Of a DNA stretch of 35,604 bases, positions 4,345-35,077 are shown one piece after another. Source of the stretch: Stramenopiles sp. TOSAG23-2 (lineage: Eukaryota); assembly GCA_900128395.1 (NCBI GenBank), contig LT649342.1, positions 1-35,604 of the forward strand, written 5' to 3'. Position 1 is the stretch's first letter. Every line of letters starts with the position of its first letter. Position numbers and translations under genes: made by a program. Below the pieces are notes generated by a model. That model saw only the letters and a program-made list of their open reading frames with translations. It did not search any database and was not told the origin of the DNA.

Positions 4345-4826
4345 GACTGTAATTGCTTCTATATATATATTACGTATAATTTCAGATGTAAAACGACGTA
4401 TCATTCTTCTTCAAAAAAATGTAGATATATATTATTCTATACGAGAGGGTTTACCAGGTTAGCTTTCCTGTGGGAAAACTAAAACGTAGATTTGTTGGAC
4501 CAGGAGGAAATGCCTCTGGTGTCCAGAGTAAGAGAATTACCAGGTAGCCACAGTATTAATAGCTAGTAATAGCTATAGTTGTATTATAATACGTGTGAAT
4601 TACCACACAGTACCATCACACAGTAGCTAAACCCCTTTACTCATAATGATGATTGAATATATATTCCAATTTGTGTTGTGTTTTTTTCATATGATACAGA
4701 ACAATTCATAGTTGTCTATGTCAATTGTCGTCTATACTTTCATTTCGTTCAAATACAATTTAAAAACAAGCCATGTCTGGTCGTGTAAATAAATATTCCA
4801 TATTCGGTAAAATAATTAATATCAGG

Positions 4827-7800
4827 ATGAATGTCAATATTTTATTGCTTTGTTGTATTTTGTCGTTATTATTCCAACTGAAAAAAATAGTTGGATTTGA
4901 ACTTACGTTAATCCATGATGCAGATACTAGAGGTGGGATCTTTGAACATGATGGTGATGGAGATCTATGTGAAATGACTGATCTCAATTCAACTGAAGCA
5001 AAAATAGTTGAGACAGCCAATACTGGAGCCACAAAATGTGCAGGTGGGGCATCTTTCCGCCATACCTTTTTTCAGAATGTAAGAAAAAACAAAACGTATC
5101 CAAACCCTGTTATTATTTCAAAAAGCCAATTATTTTTTGGCTCAGAATTATATTCAGCTCTATCGTCTACTCTGAACCAAACACATGCTGCAACGCATAT
5201 TGCAAAATATTACACTGGCCCATGCTTTTACGATGCATTAAGCATTGACAATTCGGAATTTTTTTCTGGGCCAGATGCATTTGGAAGGTATATAACTAAT
5301 CTTCCAGAGTCAACTGGCGTAATCGATACCTATATTGAAGTTAATGCGACTGATTTTTCTGCAAACCAAGGTCAAGAAGTGAAAGCGAAAGTGTCCAAAT
5401 ATAAAGTAGTCACTCATACTGACTATCCAGTAGCAATTATGGCCTCAGCCGACTTTCGAATACTATATAAAAGTAATGCTGGACTTTCAATTGTTAATAA
5501 CTATGATGAGCCGAATAAAGATAAGAAAGGATGCATACCATGCACTAATAGTTTTTTGCTAGAATTATCAACTAAAATTAAAAAACAATGGGTGGAAATT
5601 AAACAGTCGTATCCAAATTGTAAGGTGCTTATATTTATTTCCAGCTTAACTAGAGATGCAAATAAGGTACTAGCTAAATATGTTGAAGAAATTGATGTAA
5701 TTGTTGACTCTGATTCAGATAAACCTGTTGAATATGTTATGAATGATATTTCATCTCGAAATGTATCGCTTATAAATTCAGTGTGGAGAGACAAGTTAGG
5801 TGATAAAGATGATACGCAAGAACATGGACGTTCTGCAGGAGTTTTTAAAATATCATTTGATGGGAATGGTTACTTATTTGATAACATTACCGTAGAAAAC
5901 GTCTTGTTAAACGCAAATAGTTCTAACATTCGCCGTGATGGTTCATCACTGTCTCAAATGACAAATGATTATAAATTTATGAAAGGATGGGAAAGTGGAA
6001 CTTTAACACAACTTTCCATTGATATTAATGGCTATGACGGGAAAAAATTTAACGGTCAAAATTTCTTTCAAAATGATGGTTGCAGAGCAAGTGATTGTGA
6101 AATGGGGCGATTAGTAACAAGTGCTTATTTGCATGCTTGTAAATCTCGAACAAATGCCCCTTGTGATGTAGCTATTGTTAATGCTGGAAGCATTAGAGGC
6201 AGTTTTTCGAAAAATACAGATGTGACAAATTTAGACGTCGCACGAGCAACTCCTTTCGATGACAATCTTGTTTGTGCCACTGTGAGCGGAAGTTTTTTAA
6301 GAAGTTGGATCGAACATTCACTGTACAAATGGGACGAATCAGCTGGCACAAAAGAAGGAGGTGGTGATGTCTCAGGTAAATTTTTGCAAACTCAAGGATT
6401 AAGATTTGTATGGAATCCATATGAAGGGAAAATACTTAATATTTTTGTACAATCAGAAAAAACTTGGTCTTTATTAAAAGACGATGCAGAGTATAAAATC
6501 ATTGTTTCAGAATTTATTGGTCTTCGTGGGGGTGACGGATTTTCGAATTTACCAGCGGATTCAAAAGTTAGTCAAATCGACACTAGATTACAAGTATCAT
6601 TTAGTAATTATTTAAAAACTTTAAGTAAAGATTTCAGTTTTAAATCATTTGTAGATTCCACAGAATGCTTAGGGGCAAAAACAAGTGATAGATTGTTAAG
6701 AATGCAAAAAGGTTGCAGTAGCATGCGAACGAATCAAACGAAGTTGTATCAAGTCCCAACTAGCATAAATATTGCACTGATGTTGCCTAACAGTCAAACT
6801 AGTCGCGGAATTAATTTGTTCGCATTATTCAATTATACTATAGAATTGTTGAATAATGAAACAGCGAAACAAAGTAAACCGCCGCCGCCATTACGATTAA
6901 CGATACATACCACAAACGGAAATTCAACTAAAGCAAATAGTATTCTACAAAATTTAAAATCCTATACAGACGCAAGCTCTGCTGTTATACTTATGGGCCC
7001 CCTTTTGAGTAAAGTTGCTGATGGAACAGACGATCCAGCGTTAACGAAAGGTATTGTCAAACATGCAATTACAGATATTTTATCAACAAAGTTTACTCAA
7101 AAGATTGAAATTCCTATCTTCACCATGACCTTTGGTGCTTCGGATGATTCTTGCAATGATGATATAGATAAATATAGCAAATGTTCTTTAACTGGTGGTG
7201 GGAGCTTATTCCGCCGTGTTTGTTACACGGAAATGGCGCGTTATAGAGCGTTACATGATTTAATTTTGAAACAGAATTGGGCTGGGAGTCTTCGGTTGAT
7301 TGAAAAAGGCTCCTTAATGACTGGAGAAGAGCCGGTATCAGATACATTGATATCAAAAATAAATTTAAAGACTTTTCCAATAATGAAAAAATACCAAAAA
7401 AACGATGTGTCTACTTTATGTGATGAAGGAAAAAATCGCGACAACGTTTTTATTCTTGGCTTGGAAGATCAAGATATTAAATTATTTCTCAAGGACATAT
7501 CATCAAACAGTCGGTGTAATTTTTTGTTTAGCCATACACACGATAAATATAATAATGTATTTCTATTGTTGAGTTCGTCAGGCATAAATTACTTTAAAAC
7601 AATGTCGCTATCTAATAAAGTGTATACAGTAGCAATTGGTAGATACGAGCCAAAGTTTCTGAAAATATTGAGCAACAGCAATGTGGATATGGCCATGGTT
7701 TCAAACATTACAACAGATGAAACGTTAATTAATGCATATGAATCAATAGTTTATGCTTCTCACGTAGCTAAATCTGTTATAGATCTGGAAAAGGGGTTTA

Positions 7801-10139
7801 ATGATATTAAGTATATTGTGGGGGACACGAAATTTAAGCAGGGTATCGAAAAGGTAAAAACCCATCTCGATTCAAATCATGAATTGGAATTTGATTTGGA
7901 CAATGGAAATAGAGTTGCAAAATTAGAACTTATTACGCCTGGACCAAAAATTGAAGGCTATTGGACTGCAAGCAAAGGTTTACTGTGTGATTCTTGTCCA
8001 GAGGCGTTTAAAGACAACTCGCAACGTGGTAGATCAAGCAATGGTAATAATAGCACGTTTTTTATTGCAATGGTAGTAGTTATTAGTATCAGTACGTGTG
8101 CTATTGCTGGTCTCCTCTTGAAATGGTGGAATTTACATGATATTGTTTTTAATTCTGCAAATGCGTGGAAAATAGATGCAGATGAGATTCAATTGAGCAA
8201 AATGATTGGGAAAGGAGCTTATGGTAGTGTGTGGCGAGGAACGTATAATTCCACAACTGTTGCTATCAAGACATTTGAAAACAGTGGACAGATCAGCACA
8301 GAAAATTTCATAGCAGAGTTTGTGAAGCTTATTGATCTTCGACATAAGCATTTAACTCAATTTGTAGGCGCAGTGTTGGAAACTCGTGCTATAATAACAG
8401 ACTTTATGGAAAGAGGAGATTTAACAAATGTGCTGTTCGATGATAGCAGACATATCACCGGAGGAGAAAAAATTGAATGGGCTTTGCATATAGCTCTTGG
8501 ATTAGAGTATTTGCACTCCAAACATGTCGTTCATTGTGACATGAAGACTGCAAATATTCTTGTCGATAAAAATTACATATGCAAAATTGCAGATTTTGGA
8601 TTGTCGACGTTTAAAAATAAGAAAAAATCTGGGCGTGCTAGTGATTCTTTTAAAAAAAATTTGGTCACCATGGTTGGAGGTTCGGCAAAGGACGTTTTTG
8701 GTGAAGGACCAAAAGGTACTGCCTTGTGGCTTCCACCTGAAGTTATACGCGGGGGAGATTATGAGTTGGCAGGAGATGTATTTGCATATGGTTTAATTAT
8801 TTCTGAGTTAATAAACAGAGTTGAAAATTTTAGCAAAAAAAAGGAAACAATGAATCAATATAAAATTACAACAATGGTTGAAAAAGAAAGTTTAAGACCA
8901 ATTTGGGTTGACAACGTGCCGGATGAGGAAGTGTTGGATGGTCTCAAGGATGTAGCAGAAATGTGTTGGAAAGATGATAAGAACAAGAGACTTACTCTGC
9001 CTGAAATATGTAAATGTTTAACGGAATTATCTGGAAGACCACGACACAGTACCGTACAAAGTGGCGTTAGCCAAGGCGTTTCAACATCAGATATAGAAAT
9101 GGTCCGGCAAAGATCATCTGATGTTATGATGGGCGTCGTCGATGAGTATCTATATTCCAACATAATCGATAAAAAAGAATGGTACATCTCCAATCACAAA
9201 CAGTTAGAAAAGCAATCCAAAGCTGGTGGAACTGTTCCGTCTTATCACGTATTAAAACCGAACAATAAGACCACCCATTTTCCAAAATTTGCAACATTAT
9301 GTCAAAATATGAAATTCAGATTAGGAAAGAAGTCGAAAAAAATCAAACAAAACATGAGACTTATAACTAAACAAATTGAAACCTTATCATCTTTAAATCA
9401 TCCAAACATGTTGGAATTTGCCGGTATATCGCTAACTGCAGAATTTGATGGGGGTATGGTTTTTTTTAAATTGCCTGGCAAAACCTATGACTTGAATACG
9501 TATATGAATTTAAAAAATCATGTCTGCCGATTTGATTCTGCTAGGGAGACTTTGCATGGGTTTCTTGAAATTTGTAGTGCTATTGCATATCTTCACAAAC
9601 TTGATATTGTACATGGGAATATTTCATGTTATTCTATTCTAGCAACTGATCTTGGTAAGCTGTTCTTATCTAGAATTGAAGATCGGGTGATATCTAAAAA
9701 TGTCTCACAGGAACATGATGGATTAGTCACAGATGCAAAGGGCTTTTTACCTCCAGAGGCATTAATATTAGATCATTTTGTAAGATCTTCAGATATATAT
9801 TCATTAGGTATTTTGATGTGGTATTTCCTTACAAAATGTGTTCCATTTAAAGACAAAAGCATATCTGAAGTTAATCGTCAAGTTGTTAATGATAATTTGA
9901 GACCAAAATTGACTATTAAGGATGTAACAAATGCAAATAAATATGATAAGAACTCTAAATTTTCGTATATCGATCTTATGCAACAATGTTGGGAACAGAA
10001 ATTGGAAGATCGTATAAGTTTACAAGAGTTGGTATCAACCATAAATGATTTTGTTAAAACGAAATCAAAGTCTATCATAGTCATAGATGATACGGATGCT
10101 GCTGCAGACGACGAGAAGGAGAAGACAATGATGATATAG
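4827..10139 (+). CDS. Single-pass receptor kinase: signal peptide - degenerate 5'-nucleotidase (metallophosphoesterase + 5'-nucleotidase C domain) - type-1 periplasmic-binding/Venus-flytrap domain - TM - TKL kinase - pseudokinase
   Basis: Signal peptide MNVNILLLCCILSLLF (ATG 4827; alternative 4773). 5'-nucleotidase motifs LTLIHDADTRG, CAGG, YDALSIDNSEF, CRASDCEMG, DVAIVNAGSIR, PFDD, FLQTQGLR, GGDGF. Flytrap-like INIALMLP, VILMGPLLS, IPIFT, LFRRV. TM FFIAMVVVISISTCAIAGLLL. Kinase IGKGAYGSV, VAIK, HCDMKTAN, DFG, GTALWLPPE. Second domain with HGNIS, FLPPE, SDIYSLG and CW. Confidence 0.88.
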   Translation: MNVNILLLCCILSLLFQLKKIVGFELTLIHDADTRGGIFEHDGDGDLCEMTDLNSTEAKIVETANTGATKCAGGASFRHTFFQNVRKNKTYPNPVIISKSQLFFGSELYSALSSTLNQTHAATHIAKYYTGPCFYDALSIDNSEFFSGPDAFGRYITNLPESTGVIDTYIEVNATDFSANQGQEVKAKVSKYKVVTHTDYPVAIMASADFRILYKSNAGLSIVNNYDEPNKDKKGCIPCTNSFLLELSTKIKKQWVEIKQSYPNCKVLIFISSLTRDANKVLAKYVEEIDVIVDSDSDKPVEYVMNDISSRNVSLINSVWRDKLGDKDDTQEHGRSAGVFKISFDGNGYLFDNITVENVLLNANSSNIRRDGSSLSQMTNDYKFMKGWESGTLTQLSIDINGYDGKKFNGQNFFQNDGCRASDCEMGRLVTSAYLHACKSRTNAPCDVAIVNAGSIRGSFSKNTDVTNLDVARATPFDDNLVCATVSGSFLRSWIEHSLYKWDESAGTKEGGGDVSGKFLQTQGLRFVWNPYEGKILNIFVQSEKTWSLLKDDAEYKIIVSEFIGLRGGDGFSNLPADSKVSQIDTRLQVSFSNYLKTLSKDFSFKSFVDSTECLGAKTSDRLLRMQKGCSSMRTNQTKLYQVPTSINIALMLPNSQTSRGINLFALFNYTIELLNNETAKQSKPPPPLRLTIHTTNGNSTKANSILQNLKSYTDASSAVILMGPLLSKVADGTDDPALTKGIVKHAITDILSTKFTQKIEIPIFTMTFGASDDSCNDDIDKYSKCSLTGGGSLFRRVCYTEMARYRALHDLILKQNWAGSLRLIEKGSLMTGEEPVSDTLISKINLKTFPIMKKYQKNDVSTLCDEGKNRDNVFILGLEDQDIKLFLKDISSNSRCNFLFSHTHDKYNNVFLLLSSSGINYFKTMSLSNKVYTVAIGRYEPKFLKILSNSNVDMAMVSNITTDETLINAYESIVYASHVAKSVIDLEKGFNDIKYIVGDTKFKQGIEKVKTHLDSNHELEFDLDNGNRVAKLELITPGPKIEGYWTASKGLLCDSCPEAFKDNSQRGRSSNGNNSTFFIAMVVVISISTCAIAGLLLKWWNLHDIVFNSANAWKIDADEIQLSKMIGKGAYGSVWRGTYNSTTVAIKTFENSGQISTENFIAEFVKLIDLRHKHLTQFVGAVLETRAIITDFMERGDLTNVLFDDSRHITGGEKIEWALHIALGLEYLHSKHVVHCDMKTANILVDKNYICKIADFGLSTFKNKKKSGRASDSFKKNLVTMVGGSAKDVFGEGPKGTALWLPPEVIRGGDYELAGDVFAYGLIISELINRVENFSKKKETMNQYKITTMVEKESLRPIWVDNVPDEEVLDGLKDVAEMCWKDDKNKRLTLPEICKCLTELSGRPRHSTVQSGVSQGVSTSDIEMVRQRSSDVMMGVVDEYLYSNIIDKKEWYISNHKQLEKQSKAGGTVPSYHVLKPNNKTTHFPKFATLCQNMKFRLGKKSKKIKQNMRLITKQIETLSSLNHPNMLEFAGISLTAEFDGGMVFFKLPGKTYDLNTYMNLKNHVCRFDSARETLHGFLEICSAIAYLHKLDIVHGNISCYSILATDLGKLFLSRIEDRVISKNVSQEHDGLVTDAKGFLPPEALILDHFVRSSDIYSLGILMWYFLTKCVPFKDKSISEVNRQVVNDNLRPKLTIKDVTNANKYDKNSKFSYIDLMQQCWEQKLEDRISLQELVSTINDFVKTKSKSIIVIDDTDAAADDEKEKTMMI

Positions 10140-12113: not shown

Positions 12114-12319
12114 GGTTGTATATTTTCCCCTCTATCTATCTGTCTATTATTTCTGTACATACATACAGTCGATATATGTATATTATATATAGACTATATA
12201 TATGTATACATTGCATACATTTGTATATATATACTAAGTATTTTTCTGAACTAAAAGATCTATCATAAATACTATTATTTATTATTCGTTCTTCCGTAGA
12301 TTTGGTGCTACAAATGCAT

Positions 12320-12373
12320 TTGCCAAGAAGAGCCAATCTGGCAATCTGGCAACTGGCAATCCAGCTGCCAATC
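12320..12373. promoter_or_regulatory. Cluster of CTGGCAA / GCCAA motifs upstream of the PA-domain gene (candidate promoter element)
   Basis: ttgccaagaagagccaatctggcaatctggcaactggcaatccagctgccaatc; the 14-mer gccaatctggcaat recurs exactly at 13691-13704. Confidence 0.4.
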
Positions 12374-12725
12374 CGAGATTGATTGAAGCGCTGATGAAGC
12401 TTTTTGCTACGTCTATCACAATAATATAATACAAATAATTTGCGATGTGTTCCTATCAAAAACCTTTTTGCACCTTTCTGAACCACACACCACACACCAC
12501 ACACTAACACACAGCAGCTGGACAGCAACAAGATTACGACAATTGCACAATTCATAGGGAAACAAAATATTACTCCTCGTGGTATACAATAGAAAATAAA
12601 CACGTTTTTAACTTTACAAATTCCTTAAAATAATATTTTAGAACTGGCAAATGTAAATTAATTGATGAATAGTGCAAGAGGCACAATATGATGAGGACTT
12701 TTTTTAGTAGATTTATTTATTATTT

Positions 12726-13295
12726 TTATTTATTTTTCTCCAAAGAATCCATTAAAAGTTTATGAACTTGCGACATGTCTGAATTGACTTGATGCAACGT
12801 TTCTTCATTTTTCAAGATATTACGTTGACGGTTTTTAGCAGCAAGCTCTTCTTTACGTTTATTCATGTTTGATTGTTGCAATTCTATTAATAACGATTGG
12901 GATAATTTCTCTAAATGCAATTGCTTATCATAAAAAGAATCAAAGGTTGCTTTAGCTTGACTACAAATTTTTTTCTTTCGTTTTGCCAACTTAGTTATTT
13001 TATTCAATTGTCCACGGTATCTTGTTAAGTTTGTTTTTACATTGTCTAATTTTCCTTCCTCCTCTTGCAGCTCATTCCTAGCACGTACATATATTGATTT
13101 CAAACCTTCCTGTTCCTCTAGTAAACTCTCCCATTCAATGGAACGTTCATATACATATTGATCAATCTTCTGTTTCCGTGCTTTCTCTTTCTTTATTAAA
13201 TTTTTTTCTTGTACTAATTCAGAATGATAACGTTTCAATGTAGTTAATAAGTATGTTAATGCTTTTGCAGTCGTCGCACTATTTACAAGTGACAT
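12726..13295 (-). CDS. Coiled-coil protein of unknown function
   Basis: 189-aa ORF rich in E/K/Q/L with heptad periodicity, bounded by AT-rich spacers. Confidence 0.7.
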   Translation of the reverse strand: MSLVNSATTAKALTYLLTTLKRYHSELVQEKNLIKKEKARKQKIDQYVYERSIEWESLLEEQEGLKSIYVRARNELQEEEGKLDNVKTNLTRYRGQLNKITKLAKRKKKICSQAKATFDSFYDKQLHLEKLSQSLLIELQQSNMNKRKEELAAKNRQRNILKNEETLHQVNSDMSQVHKLLMDSLEKNK

Positions 13296-25834: not shown

Positions 25835-28345
25835 ATGAATATTATTTATGTATTGATGTTCTTGTGTATGTTTTTCGTAACAATCTTTTGTGCAGAATCA
25901 TCTACTGGTACGCTAAAAATAAATCAGCAACATTTACTAGCGCAAAAAGCTGTAAAGATTGGCCGTCTTTCATTTGCAAATACACATAATAGTCCGAAAG
26001 TTTCTGTTATTTTACCGGCGTATAATGTCGTTGGTCATGGAAGATTTGAAGGTGCTGTACATTCTATCTTGCAGCAAACATTTATTGATTTCGAGCTATT
26101 GCTTGTTGATGATGGTTCCAAGGATGATACAAAGTCGATAATTAAAAAATTCGAAGTAAAAGATAAAAGGATTGTTGGTGTATTTTTGAAGCAAAATGGT
26201 GGTTTACCAAACGCATTAAATGCCGGTTTAAATCGTTCGCGTGCAAGTTTAATAACATGGACATCAAGTGATAATTATTTAGAGCCTATGTTTCTTGAAT
26301 ATTTTTATCAAGCATCGATTGAATATCCCGAAAGCAATTTTTTTTTCTCCGATTGGAATATGGTTGACAAAAATGATAATTTCATACTTAGAAGTGCACA
26401 CGATTATCGTGCACCATACACATTATTTTTGCAATGGCAAGGTTGTGCTGCTTTTATGTGGCGTAAACGGGTGCGTAAGATTTTTGATGTAAATTTAGGA
26501 GGGGTGGAAGATCATGAAATGTGGATTAGAATCACAGAGGGGCAGCATGTCAATGTATGGATTCAAAATGCATTGTATAATTATACATTTAATCATGGCA
26601 GTTGGGAAGAATTAAGCTCCTCCGGAAAATTAAAAAACAAAGTAAATGAAATGGTTCTCAAAACTTACAATCGTCATACGCTACAAGAGTACGACGATAT
26701 AAGCACCATATTGGATCCATATCTCTTGTTTCCATCCATACGTTTCAATTATAATTTTAAACGCACACTTGCTACTTCATATTATCGACTTGGAACAGTG
26801 ATAAGCACTGATTTTCCAGGTCCTGATGGTGGTGTAAGGGTTGCATTGAGGCAATTACTACCACATTGCTATGGCAACTCAATAAAATTATGGCCTGAAA
26901 TGTACGAAAGTCGTTTTAATAAAATTCTTGTTCATTTAGCAAATGGAGAATGGGGTATTGCTCTTCAAGAATTTCATGTAATGAAGAAAATGATTGATGG
27001 GAATAGTAAAACAATGTTACCACGCAAATTGTTGGCGAAAATAGAAATATTGCAAAGAAAATTTGACAAACGGGCGTCTAATCAAATTGATGATCATCCA
27101 ACAACAATACTCTATGAAGATGACAATATGATATTTGAGGAAACTTCATATCGTCGAGAGAGGACACTTTTGATGGCATATGGAATGCGTTTTCTACAAA
27201 ATATGAATGGGTTGAGTTACAATATCAAAGCATTCAACATGAAACGACCATATCGTTTAGCCGTTATTCCGTCTGATCCTTTGGAAGCGTATGAAGCAGG
27301 TGGGTATGCAAATTGGCTAGAAGATTATTATAATCCATTGCATTTTTTTGATGAAGTGTTCTTACTGTCCCCACTAGAAGTGAAGGAAAGAATTGAGTAT
27401 GGAATGTATATTATCCCGACACAACCAAATGAATTATCAAGCCGAATAAAGGAATTAAACATACATCTTGTGCGGGCATATGGTGGTTACTGGCCTTGTG
27501 ACATGGCAACTTTTGGAAAGGTGCCAGGCGTACCAGTAATTGTTAGTGTTCATGATACCAATATGGATGTTTTACATGATAGTATTGCCGATGCTGACTT
27601 TGTACTACCAGTCAGTCGAGCAGTTGCAGATTTAGTGAAATTTAAATTGTTGCAAAAAAATGTTGATGAAAATATTATTGTATCGAAAATCTACATGTTT
27701 TCAAATCGCGTGGATGAGAAAGTCTTTCATCCAAACATAATAAATCATCATGATTATGATAACAAAGTAATGTCCCTGCGACAACAATATCCAGGAAAAT
27801 ATCGAATATTGTTTATTGGAAGAAGAAAAGAGCAAAAAAATTGGGATACTTTAATTAAATCATTAGCTATATTAGGAAATGATTATGTATTAATCATGAT
27901 AGGTAGAGGTGAAAAAGAACCAATTATCCAATTGGCGACGGAATTAAATGTTTTGTCACAAATTTATTTGATTGATAGTATCGAAAACTCCGATATTCCA
28001 TATTATCAATCAATAGCAGATGTATTTGCAACAGTATCGCGATGGGAAGGATTTGGTATTGTATTTATTGAAGCATTAGCAACAGGTAGATCCGTAGTTG
28101 TTACATCAGATATTGCTCCAATGAATGAGTATATAACACATGGCTTCAACGGTTTACTTGTAAAAGAGTACGAAAATCCAAAAGAAGTAGCGAAATTTTT
28201 AATATCGGCTATTCATAACAAGACTGTTCGCTCTCATATTTTAGCTAATGCCCCTTACTCTGTTGATGAGTTTTTGAAAAGCAATGTTGATAGATGGGAA
28301 GTACAATTATATCGAATTTTTTTACAATCATTTAATAAGGCTTAG
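25835..28345 (+). CDS. Signal-anchored bifunctional glycosyltransferase (N-terminal GT2/GT-A + C-terminal GT4/GT-B)
   Basis: Hydrophobic N-terminus. GT2: VSVILPAYN, QTFIDFELLLVDDGSKD, NGGLPNALNAGL, TWTSSDN, EDHEMW. GT4: ILFIGR..EQKN, SRWEGFGIVFIEALATG (E-x7-E), VVTSDIAPMNE. Confidence 0.9.
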   Translation: MNIIYVLMFLCMFFVTIFCAESSTGTLKINQQHLLAQKAVKIGRLSFANTHNSPKVSVILPAYNVVGHGRFEGAVHSILQQTFIDFELLLVDDGSKDDTKSIIKKFEVKDKRIVGVFLKQNGGLPNALNAGLNRSRASLITWTSSDNYLEPMFLEYFYQASIEYPESNFFFSDWNMVDKNDNFILRSAHDYRAPYTLFLQWQGCAAFMWRKRVRKIFDVNLGGVEDHEMWIRITEGQHVNVWIQNALYNYTFNHGSWEELSSSGKLKNKVNEMVLKTYNRHTLQEYDDISTILDPYLLFPSIRFNYNFKRTLATSYYRLGTVISTDFPGPDGGVRVALRQLLPHCYGNSIKLWPEMYESRFNKILVHLANGEWGIALQEFHVMKKMIDGNSKTMLPRKLLAKIEILQRKFDKRASNQIDDHPTTILYEDDNMIFEETSYRRERTLLMAYGMRFLQNMNGLSYNIKAFNMKRPYRLAVIPSDPLEAYEAGGYANWLEDYYNPLHFFDEVFLLSPLEVKERIEYGMYIIPTQPNELSSRIKELNIHLVRAYGGYWPCDMATFGKVPGVPVIVSVHDTNMDVLHDSIADADFVLPVSRAVADLVKFKLLQKNVDENIIVSKIYMFSNRVDEKVFHPNIINHHDYDNKVMSLRQQYPGKYRILFIGRRKEQKNWDTLIKSLAILGNDYVLIMIGRGEKEPIIQLATELNVLSQIYLIDSIENSDIPYYQSIADVFATVSRWEGFGIVFIEALATGRSVVVTSDIAPMNEYITHGFNGLLVKEYENPKEVAKFLISAIHNKTVRSHILANAPYSVDEFLKSNVDRWEVQLYRIFLQSFNKA

Positions 28346-29773: not shown

Positions 29774-32700
29774 TTACATTAACATGTTATTTTTTGCCGG
29801 AAACCATGGTGGATTGTTCGGCGATGTTACTCGTTGTGCAACTGGAGATATACCATTTCTTAATTGTACTGAACTTTTTGATTTGTGTATAAATTTTTTG
29901 AACCCTGAAGTTTCAACACTACCAATGAATAAACTAGCGTTTCCTTCATCGTAAGCTTCTCCATCGATAATTTTTGCTTTCGACATCGAGTTGTCAAATT
30001 GACTCTTTCTTGGTGCGGAGGAGCCAAATGGAGACTTTTTTGGTGTCGTTTTATTTTTCTTCCTTGGCTTCTGTTTTGGTTCATCCATCTTCAATTGTGG
30101 ATAACCATGTCCAGATATTAGAGGCAATTTATCTTTTACGTGTCTCATATCCAAACGAACCTTAATTTCTTCTCTAACTTTGAATATTTCTTCCAAAACT
30201 TGATTTGATGGCATTTCACCAATAATATTTTCAGCAGCCAGTTGAACTCTCTCAAGAGCTGATAAAGCAAACAGTAAATTTCTCTGCCTTTGTTGCTCGA
30301 TATTACTTGATTCTGCTTCTAATCTTCCGTTCATAATTTCTAGTTTGGATTGATGATGCATTAACGCCTTCATTTCCTTATTTTCAGGATCTTCGTTACC
30401 AATTTTTTCTAATTTACGAGTTACGCGTCCTAGTATCAATCCATTCTTCATAGTGTGCAATGTATTGGCAACTATCTTTTGCTTAAAGTGTTTATCTGCT
30501 CTCATGCGCTTTTCTGTATGTTCTAATTCACCATAACCATGTGTTTGTTGATATTGAGATTCTAACTCTTCCTTCAAAAGTGCCATTTCTCTATTTTTTT
30601 CAGCCAATTTGTGTCTCATTTGATATACCACGCCCATGTTCTTCGGCTCAATTTTACCTAAGGCACCTGGTTGTGAACGGCCACCGCCTCCAATGCGTGC
30701 TACACGTAGACTTCCTCTCAAGTTTTTAGATGGGCCAGAATTAGCAGCTTCACCGCCACCTCCTCCACCAAATTCAAGCTTCAAAAGCCCTTGCAAGCAT
30801 TGTGTTCCTTTTTCTAAGATTACGATAACGTCTTTTGAACGTATAGCCCTTTTCGTAAATTGTTCTAAAATATCTGGCAAGTCTTGGTCTTGGGGATATG
30901 TTTGAGCGTAAACACTTTTTACTACTTTTAATATTTTTGCGGAAAGATTCTTCGGTTTTTTGTCTATCGCACTACGTGAAAGATATCTGATTGCTCCTTC
31001 AAGTTCCTGCAATAAAGTTGCAGCTTGATACCTTTCAGCTCGCAGATCTGCTAATACTTCATCGATATTATTGGCTTTTAACAGCTCCAGCTCCTGCATT
31101 ACCTCGGCTAACTGTTTTGTTAATGTCTCTACTTGAACGTTAAAGTTTTCTATTGCTTTTTCTAATCCTTGCTTGGCCGTTTGTAGATTTTTAAATTTAG
31201 CTTGCAATGCCCGGTGCTCTAGTTGCAGTGGTGTAGGCTTTTTGGATTCCTCGTCTTCAAAGTCGAATCTGGTTTGATGAATTTCCTGCTTTTTCTTTAA
31301 AATTTCTACTTCCAGTGTTACCATTTGTTCCATTAAATCCTTCTTATCTTGCATTCTTGCGTCGTCTACTTCTTCTAACATTGCATCTTCTAAATTAAGT
31401 GCTGCTAATGTCATTTCAAGTTGGAGATGTTGGTTAATTTTTTTGCTGAACAATTTTAAAGTGCTTTCATCATCCTCTTTTCCGATTTCTCTCAATGACG
31501 ATAAAGTTAAAGTTTTCAATTTGATGCTTTTAATATCCGCAATTAAACCATTTAACTTCTGTTTCATTTTAACTTGTTCAACATCATCTGTTTCAAATTC
31601 AACTTGCCACATTAATTGCCTCATATCGCTTCTTAACACCAACATTTCAGGAAATGAATTGTCTTTAATAATTGACAAATCAATAGCTGGACCCAAAATG
31701 TTGAAAAGAATGCTTGATTTCTTTTCCAAATCGTGTACTACTTTCACTAAAGCATTTCGATTATAAACTTTTCCATGAGTACCAGCGTGTACCTTCAATT
31801 TCTCACATATATTTGCATAAGATGATAAAGTCTCATACGTTACTCTTAATTCACTTAATAAGCTTTTTGCAGCTGTATCTCGCCGTACCACCGCACTTTC
31901 TAATAGCTCAATTTGCTTCAATAGTTTACCAGTTTTTCTAAATATTGCTGCGTTACGTTCCTTTTTTCTCTCCTCAGATGTTTTGATTCTTTCAGTATGA
32001 TTTGCTTCTACAAATCTTGCTCTTCCCCCAAGTTTGTTTTTCAATAACATAGCGTCTGCTTCATCTTTTTCCCCAACGTTTAAATACATATTGTTTTCTA
32101 TGCTATTCGATTCATTAACAAGCTGAATATGTTCTAGGTGAGCATCTCCAAGCCCTTTAGTGAAATCTGACCGAAGACTCTGAATCTTTGCAACAGCACT
32201 ATTTAATTGCTCATTTAATTGTTCCACATTAGCAGATGCAGCAAACGTATCATCAACACTGGCAAGCTTGAGTTGTCTTAAATTTTGTTTTTGTTTCAAG
32301 TGAGATTCCAAGAAAGCGTCAAACTTTTGTTTATCTATCTTTGAAATTGATAAATCAACAGCATCTCCTAGTAAAGAGTGAATAAACTTTACACTTCGAT
32401 CATTAAAAATTGATTCTATCAACTGATCTGCATTGTTTCGCTCGTCATCCCATTCTGTTTCTAAGTAATTTAATGCCTGCCCTAATAATACCGATGAGCT
32501 GTAAACTTGTTGGAGTAAATCGTCAACTTCTACATACGCATCTTCTCTGTCGTTACGCAAAGTATCAATTAAACGATTTGTTCTAAATACTTTATCCTTT
32601 CTATCTGCATCTCGTTTCTCAGTACGACCATCCGCGCGTTGCTTTTTCCACTCGTGTATGTCGTCACTAAATGTCATGGCAGATTGCATGTTATCAATCT

Positions 32701-35077
32701 CTGATTCATCGATTTCTGCTTCGAGTGCTATCGATTTTGCACTTTCTAATAATTTTGTCGTTGCTGCATCTAAATCAATTCTTAAGACTTGAGATGATTG
32801 TGGGCATGCAATTAAACCGTCTTCCACCGCTGTAGTGTTTTCTATTTGTTCAATAACTTTTATCTGTTTTCGCAGTTTATCACATGTAACAATAGAATCT
32901 GCATACGCTTCAACATCACTAACATGTGCAGTTGTCATATCAGTAGCAATATTTAAAATGTCAAAAACAGTTTCCGATCCATCAAGTTTTGCTGAATCTA
33001 ATATTTCTTTTTCGTTAGGATCAATAAATCCCATTTCAATGTAATGTTTCAATTTATCAGCTCTGAAATGTTCCAATACAACACCTTTTAAATTATCGCT
33101 ACCGCTATTTTTTGAGGTTTCTAAAGCAATTTCTATAAGATTTTCAATAGTTGGGACCAATTGATCATCAATTTTAGCATTCAACTTTTCAATGTCTTCT
33201 TCTTGTTTGTCAATAGTTTCTTGCAATAAAGCCACTTCCTTGGCATGCCTTTCCGCAATTTCTTCAAGTTCTTTTTCCAAGCGTGCTACCTCTGCCTCAG
33301 CTGCTTCTGTAAGTTCAACTTGCTCAGCTAATAATCTTTCTCCTCTTTCTCTTTCCTCTGCAACTTTACGAACCATCTCTTCTTGCACTTCGACAATTTT
33401 TTGTTCTAATTCTAATATAACTGCTTGTAACCTTTCTATTTCATCCTCGGCTTTTTTTGCTCGTTCCAAATTTTTTGCAGCAACTCGTTTAGCGTCTTCT
33501 ATATCTTTTTTGGCATTAACAAGCGATTTCTCAAGTTTTTCCCGCTCCGCAGCAGCCTCTTCTTGAAATTTTTCGAGCCTTTGTTGCGCTTCAAATTGTT
33601 GTTGTGCCAACTCATTTTTCATTACAAACAATGCATCATCTGCTTCTTGTTGCAATGCTTTTACTCGTTCATACTCCTCTGGTTCTATTCTCGGCTTTGC
33701 AACTTCTTGTCTAAGCTCTATTAGTTCTAAGTTTTGGTCGTCTATTGTATGCTCTAGCTTGGAAATTTTATCTTGTAAGGAATGTATTTCGTCTCTAAGT
33801 TTCTTTTCCTTAATTTCTGCTACTTTTGCACCTTTTCTATTTGCTGAAGTTGCAATAAATTGTTCTTGTTCAAACTTTGCGCGTTCTTCGAGTTCTTTTT
33901 CTCTTGCACGAGAAGATTCTCGTATCAGCTGCTCTTCTAGTCTAGTTATTTTACGATTCATTAGCAGCTCTTTTTCTGCCGAGTTTGCTTTATATTTTGC
34001 AAAATCTGCCAATGTTTTTTCTCTATTTGTCTGCGCAATTCGTACGCTGGCCATATCTTCCTGCCTTTTTTTCGTCAAATCAGCAACTTCCGCTTGTAAA
34101 CGTTTTAATTGATCCAGTGTTTCGCTAAAGTCATCCTCGTCATCCTCTTCTTCTATTGTGCCATCTTCCGATTCTTCATCTGGTTTCGCACTATCTGCAT
34201 TACCACCTGTATTTGGTGATACATACTTTCCATCTGCATCTATTGAAACATCTCCATCTCCATCTTCTCCTAATCTTCTTGTACTTGCAGATGTAGTTTC
34301 TTCTGGTTGACCACTATTTGATTTTGTTGAGGATTCTGGTGTATTTGGCTTGGATGGAAGCTTTAAAGGAGTCTCGTCAACTTCTTCCCCTAAAATGTTC
34401 TCGGCAGCGCCGACTTTAGCAGCTCTATGATGATGCAGCGCGGACATTAATAATAATCTACGTTTATCCTTTTTATGTTTTCTAACTTGTGCACGATGTT
34501 CTGCCGCATGGCGTATTGCTTTTTTCACCTCTTTCTTTGCTGCAACTTTTACATCTTTAAACAATGAATGCATTCGTCGCTTGGATTCTCCTGCAACGTA
34601 CATATATTCCTTTTTTATACGATCTGAAGTTTCTAAAAGATCAGCTGTATCTTTGGATTCATCTTCTGCTTCTATAAATTCTCCTTCCATGATTTCCATA
34701 TCTGCCACATTTTCCCCAAACCATTTCGTAACATCTTCCAATTGCTCTTCTTGCTCCTCTTGAACCCTATTTACTTCTACTAATAAAAATTTACTATCTT
34801 TAAATGCTTCTTGTCCTCTTTGATACGAGTCACCGATTCTACCATCTTTTAAATAATGTCTATCCTTCTTACAAAATTTATCAAATTCTTCAAGTGTCGC
34901 ACTTACTCTTTTTTTTGATTCTTTTGCAGAGTCGTGTAAACTTAACTTTTTATCTATTGTCTTTGAATCCACTGGAATTTCAGGCGGTTTATCATTTTTT
35001 CTTCGTTTCTTTTTTACATATGTATTTTTTAGTTTTTTACGTTCCTTCTCTGGTCTTTTAACTCGTCTACGAGACAT
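29774..35077 (-). CDS. Giant coiled-coil protein with a basic N-terminus and degenerate internal repeats
   Basis: 1767-aa uninterrupted ORF with long E/K/A/Q heptad runs, a K/R-rich N-terminus and an acidic disordered insert. Confidence 0.8.
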   Translation of the reverse strand: MSRRRVKRPEKERKKLKNTYVKKKRRKNDKPPEIPVDSKTIDKKLSLHDSAKESKKRVSATLEEFDKFCKKDRHYLKDGRIGDSYQRGQEAFKDSKFLLVEVNRVQEEQEEQLEDVTKWFGENVADMEIMEGEFIEAEDESKDTADLLETSDRIKKEYMYVAGESKRRMHSLFKDVKVAAKKEVKKAIRHAAEHRAQVRKHKKDKRRLLLMSALHHHRAAKVGAAENILGEEVDETPLKLPSKPNTPESSTKSNSGQPEETTSASTRRLGEDGDGDVSIDADGKYVSPNTGGNADSAKPDEESEDGTIEEEDDEDDFSETLDQLKRLQAEVADLTKKRQEDMASVRIAQTNREKTLADFAKYKANSAEKELLMNRKITRLEEQLIRESSRAREKELEERAKFEQEQFIATSANRKGAKVAEIKEKKLRDEIHSLQDKISKLEHTIDDQNLELIELRQEVAKPRIEPEEYERVKALQQEADDALFVMKNELAQQQFEAQQRLEKFQEEAAAEREKLEKSLVNAKKDIEDAKRVAAKNLERAKKAEDEIERLQAVILELEQKIVEVQEEMVRKVAEERERGERLLAEQVELTEAAEAEVARLEKELEEIAERHAKEVALLQETIDKQEEDIEKLNAKIDDQLVPTIENLIEIALETSKNSGSDNLKGVVLEHFRADKLKHYIEMGFIDPNEKEILDSAKLDGSETVFDILNIATDMTTAHVSDVEAYADSIVTCDKLRKQIKVIEQIENTTAVEDGLIACPQSSQVLRIDLDAATTKLLESAKSIALEAEIDESEIDNMQSAMTFSDDIHEWKKQRADGRTEKRDADRKDKVFRTNRLIDTLRNDREDAYVEVDDLLQQVYSSSVLLGQALNYLETEWDDERNNADQLIESIFNDRSVKFIHSLLGDAVDLSISKIDKQKFDAFLESHLKQKQNLRQLKLASVDDTFAASANVEQLNEQLNSAVAKIQSLRSDFTKGLGDAHLEHIQLVNESNSIENNMYLNVGEKDEADAMLLKNKLGGRARFVEANHTERIKTSEERKKERNAAIFRKTGKLLKQIELLESAVVRRDTAAKSLLSELRVTYETLSSYANICEKLKVHAGTHGKVYNRNALVKVVHDLEKKSSILFNILGPAIDLSIIKDNSFPEMLVLRSDMRQLMWQVEFETDDVEQVKMKQKLNGLIADIKSIKLKTLTLSSLREIGKEDDESTLKLFSKKINQHLQLEMTLAALNLEDAMLEEVDDARMQDKKDLMEQMVTLEVEILKKKQEIHQTRFDFEDEESKKPTPLQLEHRALQAKFKNLQTAKQGLEKAIENFNVQVETLTKQLAEVMQELELLKANNIDEVLADLRAERYQAATLLQELEGAIRYLSRSAIDKKPKNLSAKILKVVKSVYAQTYPQDQDLPDILEQFTKRAIRSKDVIVILEKGTQCLQGLLKLEFGGGGGGEAANSGPSKNLRGSLRVARIGGGGRSQPGALGKIEPKNMGVVYQMRHKLAEKNREMALLKEELESQYQQTHGYGELEHTEKRMRADKHFKQKIVANTLHTMKNGLILGRVTRKLEKIGNEDPENKEMKALMHHQSKLEIMNGRLEAESSNIEQQRQRNLLFALSALERVQLAAENIIGEMPSNQVLEEIFKVREEIKVRLDMRHVKDKLPLISGHGYPQLKMDEPKQKPRKKNKTTPKKSPFGSSAPRKSQFDNSMSKAKIIDGEAYDEGNASLFIGSVETSGFKKFIHKSKSSVQLRNGISPVAQRVTSPNNPPWFPAKNNMLM

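Follow-up and report, generated by a model that had tools for sequence, protein, structure and literature searches.

The window analyzed in the present study is a 35,604-nucleotide stretch of DNA from Stramenopiles sp. TOSAG23-2 (assembly GCA_900128395.1, contig LT649342.1). One of its genes (4773..10139, + strand) encodes a 1788-amino-acid protein, labelled P0001 in our set of homologues, which contains a 5'-nucleotidase module with most of the catalytic residues replaced and the nucleoside pocket retained. Our best explanation, to which we assign a probability of about 0.5, is that P0001 is a type I single-pass receptor kinase with a catalytically dead, nucleotide-binding clamp outside the cell and a kinase and pseudokinase inside. 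From the N terminus, the extracellular part would consist of a dead clamp of the CD73/UshA type, a Cys-bounded linker, and a membrane-proximal domain of roughly 400 residues, which is probably a diverged flytrap. The intracellular part would consist of an intact TKL-like kinase followed by a pseudokinase.

The nucleotidase module

The two-domain module spans residues 19-669 (4827..6779, +), as delimited by the envelope of a hidden Markov model (HMM). Its C-terminal domain, 5_nucleotid_C (PF02872; residues 431-591, 6063..6545, +), was recovered by Pfam with an E-value of 1.4e-23 (84.2 bits against a cut-off of 23.6), and it also aligns with Thermus 5'-nucleotidase and CD73 in the PDB. A PDB sequence search with residues 40-621 returned 24 matches, all of which were 5'-nucleotidases; Thermus 2z1a ranked first (2e-13) and the CD73 entries followed at approximately 2e-9. 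A first-pass annotation of this DNA had expected matches to both 5_nucleotid_C and a Metallophos-like profile. The second expectation did not hold because the N-terminal 413 residues matched no Pfam family at E up to 10. However, residues approximately 20-673 were aligned by BLASTP with full-length enzymes among the database matches, over both domains and with E-values down to 4e-32. It follows that the N-terminal half and the metallophosphoesterase half of these enzymes are homologous, as indicated by pairwise and HMM alignments rather than by Pfam, and the two-domain 5'-nucleotidase proposed by the annotation is present.

The annotation also called this 5'-nucleotidase dead, which was correct and can be expressed as a count. 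At the eight key positions, P0001 carries D51, R53, Q119, N160, S161, F164, S291, and D314, where the enzyme type carries D, H, D, N, H, D, H, and H. Only D51 and N160 (2/8) are kept, and P0001 lacks the set of dimetal ligands and catalytic His and Asp (DxH, GD, GNHxxD, H, and GxH). Judged by its sequence, P0001 is a 5'-nucleotidase homologue and not a catalytic member. The relatives P0004, P0012, and P0005 (49-62% identity) share the same dead motifs, DTRGG, KTK, and DNSEF, and the dead state is therefore old and stable.

In contrast to the metal site, the pocket of the C-terminal domain is complete in P0001 (6/6; R438, N470, R475, F495, F581, and D588, or R N R F F D), and the pocket motifs CRxxxC, NxGxIR, PF, and F...GGDGF are present in the module. 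The roles of these residues in nucleoside and phosphate binding are those known from CD73 structures. This conservation supports the idea that the nucleotidase module is a nucleotide or nucleoside sensor. The coincidence sensing of a nucleotide with an amino acid, which was also proposed in the annotation, is speculation.

Dead modules in the database

The same pattern was found in other proteins. We compared 18 hand-picked enzyme-type sequences (500-650 aa) with 15 receptor-linked forms; P0124 was removed from the enzyme set after receptor-type motifs were seen in it. The six metal/catalytic positions tabulated were canonical in all enzyme-type sequences, except for one N at the last His, and in 0 to 2 of the 15 receptor-linked forms. 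The six pocket positions were retained in 14-15 of the 15 receptor-linked forms. The comparison was repeated on an unpicked sample by running the HMM on the top 150 database matches, which yielded 194 domain matches, 86 of which cover all key columns. The catalytic/metal score of these domains was 7-8 of 8 in 57, 3-6 in 10, and 2 or less in 19. Among the 19 dead domains, the pocket was complete in 15 and retained at five or more of the six positions in 18, and the first metal-binding His was replaced by Arg in 10.

The dead modules are attached to several types of output. Nine of the 19 occur with the class C seven-transmembrane (7TM) domain (7tm_3, identified by Pfam and by local seeds), including P0015, P0021, and P0049; P0015 originates from the stramenopile Platysulcus tardus. 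A kinase is present in three (P0001, P0002, and P0014). An ANF domain is carried by P0048 (with RGS and several transmembrane [TM] segments), P0016 (with Ion_trans), and P0083 (ANF only, possibly cut). Ephrin_rec_like repeats were detected in P0132 and P0003, and nothing further was recognized in P0139. P0030 (1009 aa) contains a signal peptide, the dead module, one TM helix, and TIR domains. No enzyme-type protein matched the local 7TM, kinase, TIR, ANF, or RGS seeds; the long proteins among them had no Pfam scan.

Some of these architectures were noted in their own right. The layout of P0030 resembles that of a Toll-like receptor, with a nucleotidase clamp as the ectodomain. In P0016 (3328 aa), a strong ANF_receptor domain (E 1.1e-53) and an Ion_trans channel domain come after the dead 5'-nucleotidase, and this protein could act as a ligand-gated channel whose ectodomain has the same tandem form. 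P0048 (1659 aa) combines the dead 5'-nucleotidase and ANF_receptor with several TM segments and RGS, and resembles the plant 7TM-RGS proteins with a large sensor on top. P0007, P0009, P0017, P0032, P0068, and P0138 are long proteins with two to ten nucleotidase stretches, and the scorable stretches have enzyme-type (live) sites.

In a quick IQ-TREE analysis of the 86 domains, all 19 dead domains fell on one side of a branch with a Shimodaira-Hasegawa approximate likelihood ratio test (SH-aLRT) support of 99, and P0001 joined P0014 and P0016 with a support of 85. The tree was repeated after the 14 key columns had been removed, using a mixture model (quick search) and 40 rows, namely, 18 dead domains, 18 of the 57 live domains drawn at random, and 4 of the 10 intermediate domains. 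The dead rows again fell on one side (99), with P0001 in a 12-row subset (95). A single origin of the dead clade is likely but not secure because of long branches and odd amino-acid composition.

We also propose, tentatively and with less confidence than for P0001 itself, that a widespread and functionally undescribed class of receptors on the surface of eukaryotic cells uses dead CD73-like clamps to sense extracellular nucleotides or nucleosides, and that these clamps have been joined to five or more outputs (class C 7TM, 7TM-RGS, ion channel, TIR, and kinase). The window gene would be the kinase member of this class, with a clamp and a flytrap, and may integrate purine cues with those of a second small molecule.

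Topology and kinase domains

A Kyte-Doolittle scan of P0001 revealed only two hydrophobic stretches, at residues approximately 14-44 and 1093-1119. The first contains the hydrophobic core of a signal peptide (residues approximately 22-40; 4836..4892, +), and the start of the mature protein is probably close to F42 (FELT). In P0004 and P0012, the same F-x-[LIV]-T start follows immediately after a short hydrophobic leader. The second corresponds to a single TM helix (residues 1096-1118; 8058..8126, +), and the TM segment of the relative P0160 is at an equal position. Fourteen of the 19 N-x-S/T sequons precede the second stretch, a distribution that, together with the two hydrophobic stretches, fits a type I membrane protein. 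A Cys-bounded linker, C-L-G...C (residues 632-648; 6666..6716, +), is located between the nucleotidase and middle domains; its motif was also found in P0010 and P0006, and in the form CLG...C in P0016 and P0015.

The whole protein matched the Pfam families PK_Tyr_Ser-Thr (E 1.2e-66) and Pkinase (E 2e-61), each in two stretches, the best being residues 1139-1416. This best stretch is kinase 1 (8187..9020, +). When aligned with Src, it has a Gly loop (GKGAYG), the VAIK Lys (K1162), the alpha-C Glu, the catalytic Asp in HCD (HCDMKTAN), and DFG, and it also carries a long insert in the activation segment. With all catalytic motifs in place, kinase 1 is predicted to be active. PK_Tyr_Ser-Thr outscores Pkinase and the catalytic loop is HCDMKTAN, features that may be read as TKL-like.

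When the C-terminal third was scanned alone, Pfam identified a second kinase domain (E 9.8e-21) at residues approximately 1522-1756 (9336..10040, +), which was aligned with kinase 1 by hhalign at a probability of 96% (E 2.4e-9). In kinase 2, the Gly-rich loop is gone, HGNISCYS stands for HCDMKTAN (HGN for HxD), S replaces the Lys and Asn of the catalytic loop, and DLG stands for DFG. Kinase 2, which lacks the catalytic Asp, is predicted to be a pseudokinase. The C terminus lies approximately 30 residues beyond it.

The signal peptide, single TM helix, kinase domain, and second kinase-like domain were all described in the first-pass annotation, as was the expectation of two PK_Tyr_Ser-Thr matches, and each was found again in the present study. 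Four of the five modules of its architecture, the nucleotidase among them, are right; the fifth, the flytrap, is plausible and unproven.

The middle ectodomain

The middle ectodomain comprises residues approximately 662-1062 (6756..7958, +), and on the basis of ESM features and colinear motifs we consider it to be probably a diverged flytrap of the PBP1/ANF type. A search with ESM features (from a protein language model) gave a score of 0.83 for residues 625-1090 and, at the second try, 0.95 for the trimmed residues 662-1062, a score that shuffled proteins reach approximately once in 100; the shared-feature count of 158 lies in the range of distant relatives or chance. In the search with residues 662-1062, 20 of the 30 matches belonged to ANF_receptor/Peripla_BP_6 clusters. 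In a MAFFT alignment, the middle domain was colinear with three true ANF domains, and four PBP1 hallmark motifs (GP..S, F-R-R...W, AY(E/D), and FD.xG(N/D)R) were aligned in order; P0001 has AYE and FD.DNGNR at the last two. Moreover, three other dead-nucleotidase receptors (P0016, P0048, and P0083) have a clear ANF domain directly after the nucleotidase.

On the other hand, profile and structure-based methods did not support this assignment. The ANF_receptor/PBP1 match that the annotation had expected was not recovered by Pfam; the middle 470 residues gave only a chance-level match, with no ANF_receptor or PBP1 at E up to 10, and a phmmer search of the PDB at the same limit returned 0 matches. 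The hhalign P-values were 0.4 for a LIVBP profile based on LivJ/LivK of E. coli and 14 plasmid binding proteins, 0.06 for three eukaryotic ANF domains, and 0.47 for the two combined. The LIVBP profile detected true ANF domains in the positive controls (P0016, 1.4e-16; P0048, 1.6e-4). Local hhalign against single ANF domains and pairwise BLASTP against P0048 (E 0.095) were also not significant. AlphaFold2 returned a predicted local distance difference test (pLDDT) value of 30.4 with a noisy alignment and 36.8 with a clean one that included parts of the three true ANF domains. Sequence matches to the middle domain were confined to relatives, and a dedicated homologue search yielded two near-identical fragments. 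The search with the ANF part of P0048 found nothing beyond the query, and the middle region of P0014 had no detectable relation to ANF or to the middle domain of P0001.

The alternative is that the middle domain is a lineage-specific alpha/beta spacer or dimerization domain, and that the receptor has a single ligand site. The empty Pfam and PDB searches, the weak hhalign values against a profile that detects true ANF domains, and the low pLDDT favor a spacer. However, a spacer does not explain the ESM score of 0.95 to an ANF_receptor/Peripla_BP_6 cluster, reached after 0.83 at the first try, the ordered hallmark motifs, or the ANF domain at the same position in three related receptors. We regard a spacer as unlikely. 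This alternative concerns the middle domain only, is compatible with the receptor-kinase reading in all other respects, and its probability is not to be added to those of other alternatives. The earlier flytrap claim is thus favored by ESM features and colinear motifs, and left without significant support by Pfam, the PDB, and hhalign.

Gene model

The gene is a single open reading frame (ORF) of 1788 codons plus a stop, without interruption, as the first-pass annotation had claimed. The start at 4827 given there is in frame; however, it corresponds to the second Met (M19), and the first ATG is at 4773. Another assembly contains, on a 7.8-kb contig, a 1789-aa protein (P0002) with 98% identity across the whole ectodomain and an identical set of Pfam domains. 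Near-identical DNA was also found in marine and seawater metagenome runs of several studies (word shares of 0.76-0.94).

More distant support comes from ORF pieces of diverged relatives, which are 44-70% identical to P0001 in an exhaustive search and 37-62% by BLASTP. P0004 and P0012 span the signal peptide and the start of the nucleotidase, and P0010 and P0006 bridge the end of the nucleotidase and the linker. The alignment of P0160 is colinear and unbroken; it begins in the last part of the middle domain, crosses the TM helix, and reaches into kinase 1 (residues 951-1284; 55% identity over 338 residues, E 5e-131). The ORFs of the relatives, including P0011 and P0160, are short (approximately 70-340 aa), although some lie on contigs of 36-59 kb. 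Introns or frame breaks may split the orthologue there, whereas the copy in the window is continuous.

Every domain is covered in part by contigs from four RNA libraries, each from a different study. The stretch 7888-8385 (ectodomain, TM helix, and kinase 1) is spanned by overlapping records and 9043-9489 (from kinase 1 into kinase 2) by a single record; joints were seen in neither. No contig from the four libraries covers 4700-5146 or 6392-7245, which is not evidence of absence; the second gap leaves the junction between the nucleotidase and middle domain without RNA support. An RNA contig of run X16 tracks the ORF as far as 10138, after which come 21 letters that differ from the window, which may reflect a strain difference in the 3' flank.

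Alternative explanations

Chimeric assembly or separate transcripts, either of which was named in the annotation as a reason to abandon the receptor, were looked for, and the other assembly, the ORFs of relatives, and the RNA-library contigs all speak for one gene. We take the ORF as one gene. An artefact of the gene model or assembly (a chimera, a pseudogene, or a pair of genes mistaken for a single one) is highly improbable; no single RNA contig spans the whole ORF, whereas the frame is open over 5.4 kb, the architecture is repeated independently in P0002, and both relatives' ORFs (nucleotidase/linker and middle domain/TM/kinase) and RNA-library contigs (ectodomain/TM/kinase and kinase 1/kinase 2) cross the junctions. 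It is also very unlikely, if slightly less so, that P0001 is a membrane-tethered, kinase-coupled ecto-enzyme that still hydrolyzes nucleotides with other residues. Two of the eight key positions remain in the form of D51 and N160; however, replacements affect both His of the catalytic and metal motifs, the Asp of GD, the catalytic His-Asp pair, and both later His. The 18 hand-picked enzyme-type sequences are canonical at the six tabulated positions, except for the one N at the last His, and 57 of the 86 domains retain 7-8 catalytic/metal residues.

A more serious alternative, which we nevertheless consider to be unlikely, is a receptor kinase in which the dead nucleotidase module has lost nucleotide binding and instead recognizes a different small molecule (such as a sugar nucleotide, dinucleotide, or phosphoester) or mediates contacts with proteins or cell surfaces. 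Pseudoenzyme domains often switch their ligand, and the N-terminal half of the module is too diverged for Pfam. The ectodomain also evolves faster than the kinase, as relatives' ectodomain pieces are approximately 37-62% identical in comparison with near-identity in the kinase part of P0160. Nevertheless, a complete pocket in P0001 and at least five of six pocket residues in 18 of the 19 dead modules, despite very long branches, are difficult to explain amid the loss of the metal site unless selection acts on the nucleoside pocket. Several other points weigh against a nucleotide-binding receptor kinase. Retention of the pocket residues may reflect structural needs or a different ligand. The columns that we treat as metal ligands, the catalytic pair, and adenine-stacking aromatics are assigned after CD73/UshA structures, and what was computed for them is conservation among enzyme-type matches. 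The trees have long branches and an uneven amino-acid composition, and a meeting of long branches was flagged for P0001 with P0014. RNA-library contigs can contain DNA, and they do not show the strand or the ends of transcripts.

Proposed mechanism

From the domain homologies, catalytic loss, retained pocket, topology, kinase motifs, and conservation in relatives, we infer the ligand, clamp closure, dimerization, and signaling output of the receptor kinase as follows. The clamp has lost the dimetal/catalytic site of its N-terminal half and kept the base-stacking and ribose/phosphate residues of its C-terminal half. It would bind an extracellular nucleotide or nucleoside without hydrolysis, and the Arg that stands where the enzymes have their first metal-binding His may take over the phosphate contact from the metal. 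Closure of the clamp, or a rearrangement of a receptor dimer, would be relayed through the proximal domain and TM helix and would activate kinase 1. The pseudokinase would act as a regulatory or dimerizing partner.

Comparison with known receptors and significance

The module shares homology over the full length of both domains (Metallophos and 5_nucleotid_C) and the pocket motifs with CD73 and UshA. These enzymes are anchored by glycosylphosphatidylinositol or periplasmic. In contrast, the module of P0001 is a pseudoenzyme with 6/8 metal/catalytic residues replaced, and the same polypeptide continues into a further ectodomain, a TM helix, and two kinase domains. The plant extracellular-ATP receptor P2K1/DORN1 is a lectin receptor kinase for which ligand binding has been demonstrated. 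The idea common to both is a single-pass kinase receptor whose ligand is an extracellular nucleotide; however, the ectodomain of P2K1/DORN1 has a legume lectin fold, to which the nucleotidase clamp is unrelated, and the ligand of P0001 is a prediction. Natriuretic-peptide receptors and other receptor guanylyl cyclases are likewise single-pass proteins with an intracellular pseudokinase and, if the flytrap holds, a PBP1 ectodomain in common with P0001. P0001 differs from them in the active-type kinase before the pseudokinase and in the additional dead nucleotidase on top, and Pfam found no guanylate cyclase catalytic domain in it.

Three unannotated predicted proteins of the dead clade are closer. 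P0014 has the same order of ectodomain, TM helix, and kinase, with one kinase and no pseudokinase. P0016 and P0048 share the tandem of nucleotidase and ANF on other outputs; dead ectodomains of this tandem type are thus already present in databases.

Ectodomains of the 5_nucleotid_C and Ephrin_rec-like types have been described on Glutamate-class G protein-coupled receptors (GPCRs) from choanoflagellates and other lineages closely related to animals (eLife 2025, PMC12716839, and the corresponding preprint). These class C GPCRs likewise place a nucleotidase-type ectodomain on a signaling receptor, and the accessible parts of the report describe the presence of the domains only, with dead sites, pocket retention, and kinase fusions unmentioned there (PMC12716839). 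The 7tm_3-linked matches found in the present study belong to the same dead clade as the window module. In contrast to class C GPCRs, P0001 has a kinase and pseudokinase behind one TM helix; no 7tm_3 (PF00003) was found in it by Pfam, and it has one TM segment only. The earlier statement that no receptor like this had been described is consequently too broad for the GPCR-linked 5_nucleotid_C, which is in print (PMC12716839). A literature search, with most subscription journals outside its reach, returned nothing on a kinase-linked nucleotidase receptor, a nucleotidase described as a pseudoenzyme sensor, a dead site with a kept pocket, or the tandem ectodomain. What is new is a kinase-coupled, tandem-ectodomain member of an ectodomain type already known on GPCRs.

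The sensing of extracellular ATP, AMP, and adenosine in single-celled eukaryotes is largely open. Some protists have P2X channels, and plants rely on lectin kinases. To our knowledge, adenosine and P2Y-type receptors are animal inventions. If true, a pseudoenzyme clamp that keeps only the nucleoside pocket and sits on many outputs would be a testable candidate for an older purine-sensing system. Dissolved nucleotides and nucleosides in the sea mark lysed or leaking cells; therefore, such a receptor could guide the feeding of heterotrophic protists. It would also offer a clear case in nature of a receptor domain that evolved from an enzyme. The purine-receptor hypothesis is directly testable because the pattern of a dead site and live pocket extends across 19 modules on several outputs, and the residues R53, R438, N470, R475, F495, F581, and D588 are defined for binding and mutagenesis experiments.

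Other genes in the window

The DNA of the window is approximately 34% G+C and gene-dense, with short intergenic gaps and uninterrupted ORFs of up to 2151 aa. These very long ORFs and short gaps suggest that the organism is intron-poor. The neighbors of the receptor gene encode ECM29, MTP18, a PA-domain protein, a USP9X-like hydrolase, and a fused glycosyltransferase, all in long uninterrupted ORFs. A giant-virus or bacterial origin of the DNA was considered and ruled out by these eukaryotic neighbors (ECM29, MTP18, the USP9X-like hydrolase, and others). The glycosyltransferase ORF (25835-28345, +; 836 aa) joins a family 2 (GT2) and a family 1 (GT1) domain. For the ORF at 29774-35077 (-; 1767 aa), Pfam gave no match at E up to 0.001. 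A single gene with two exons may account for the ORFs at 12136-12603 and 12726-13295 (-).

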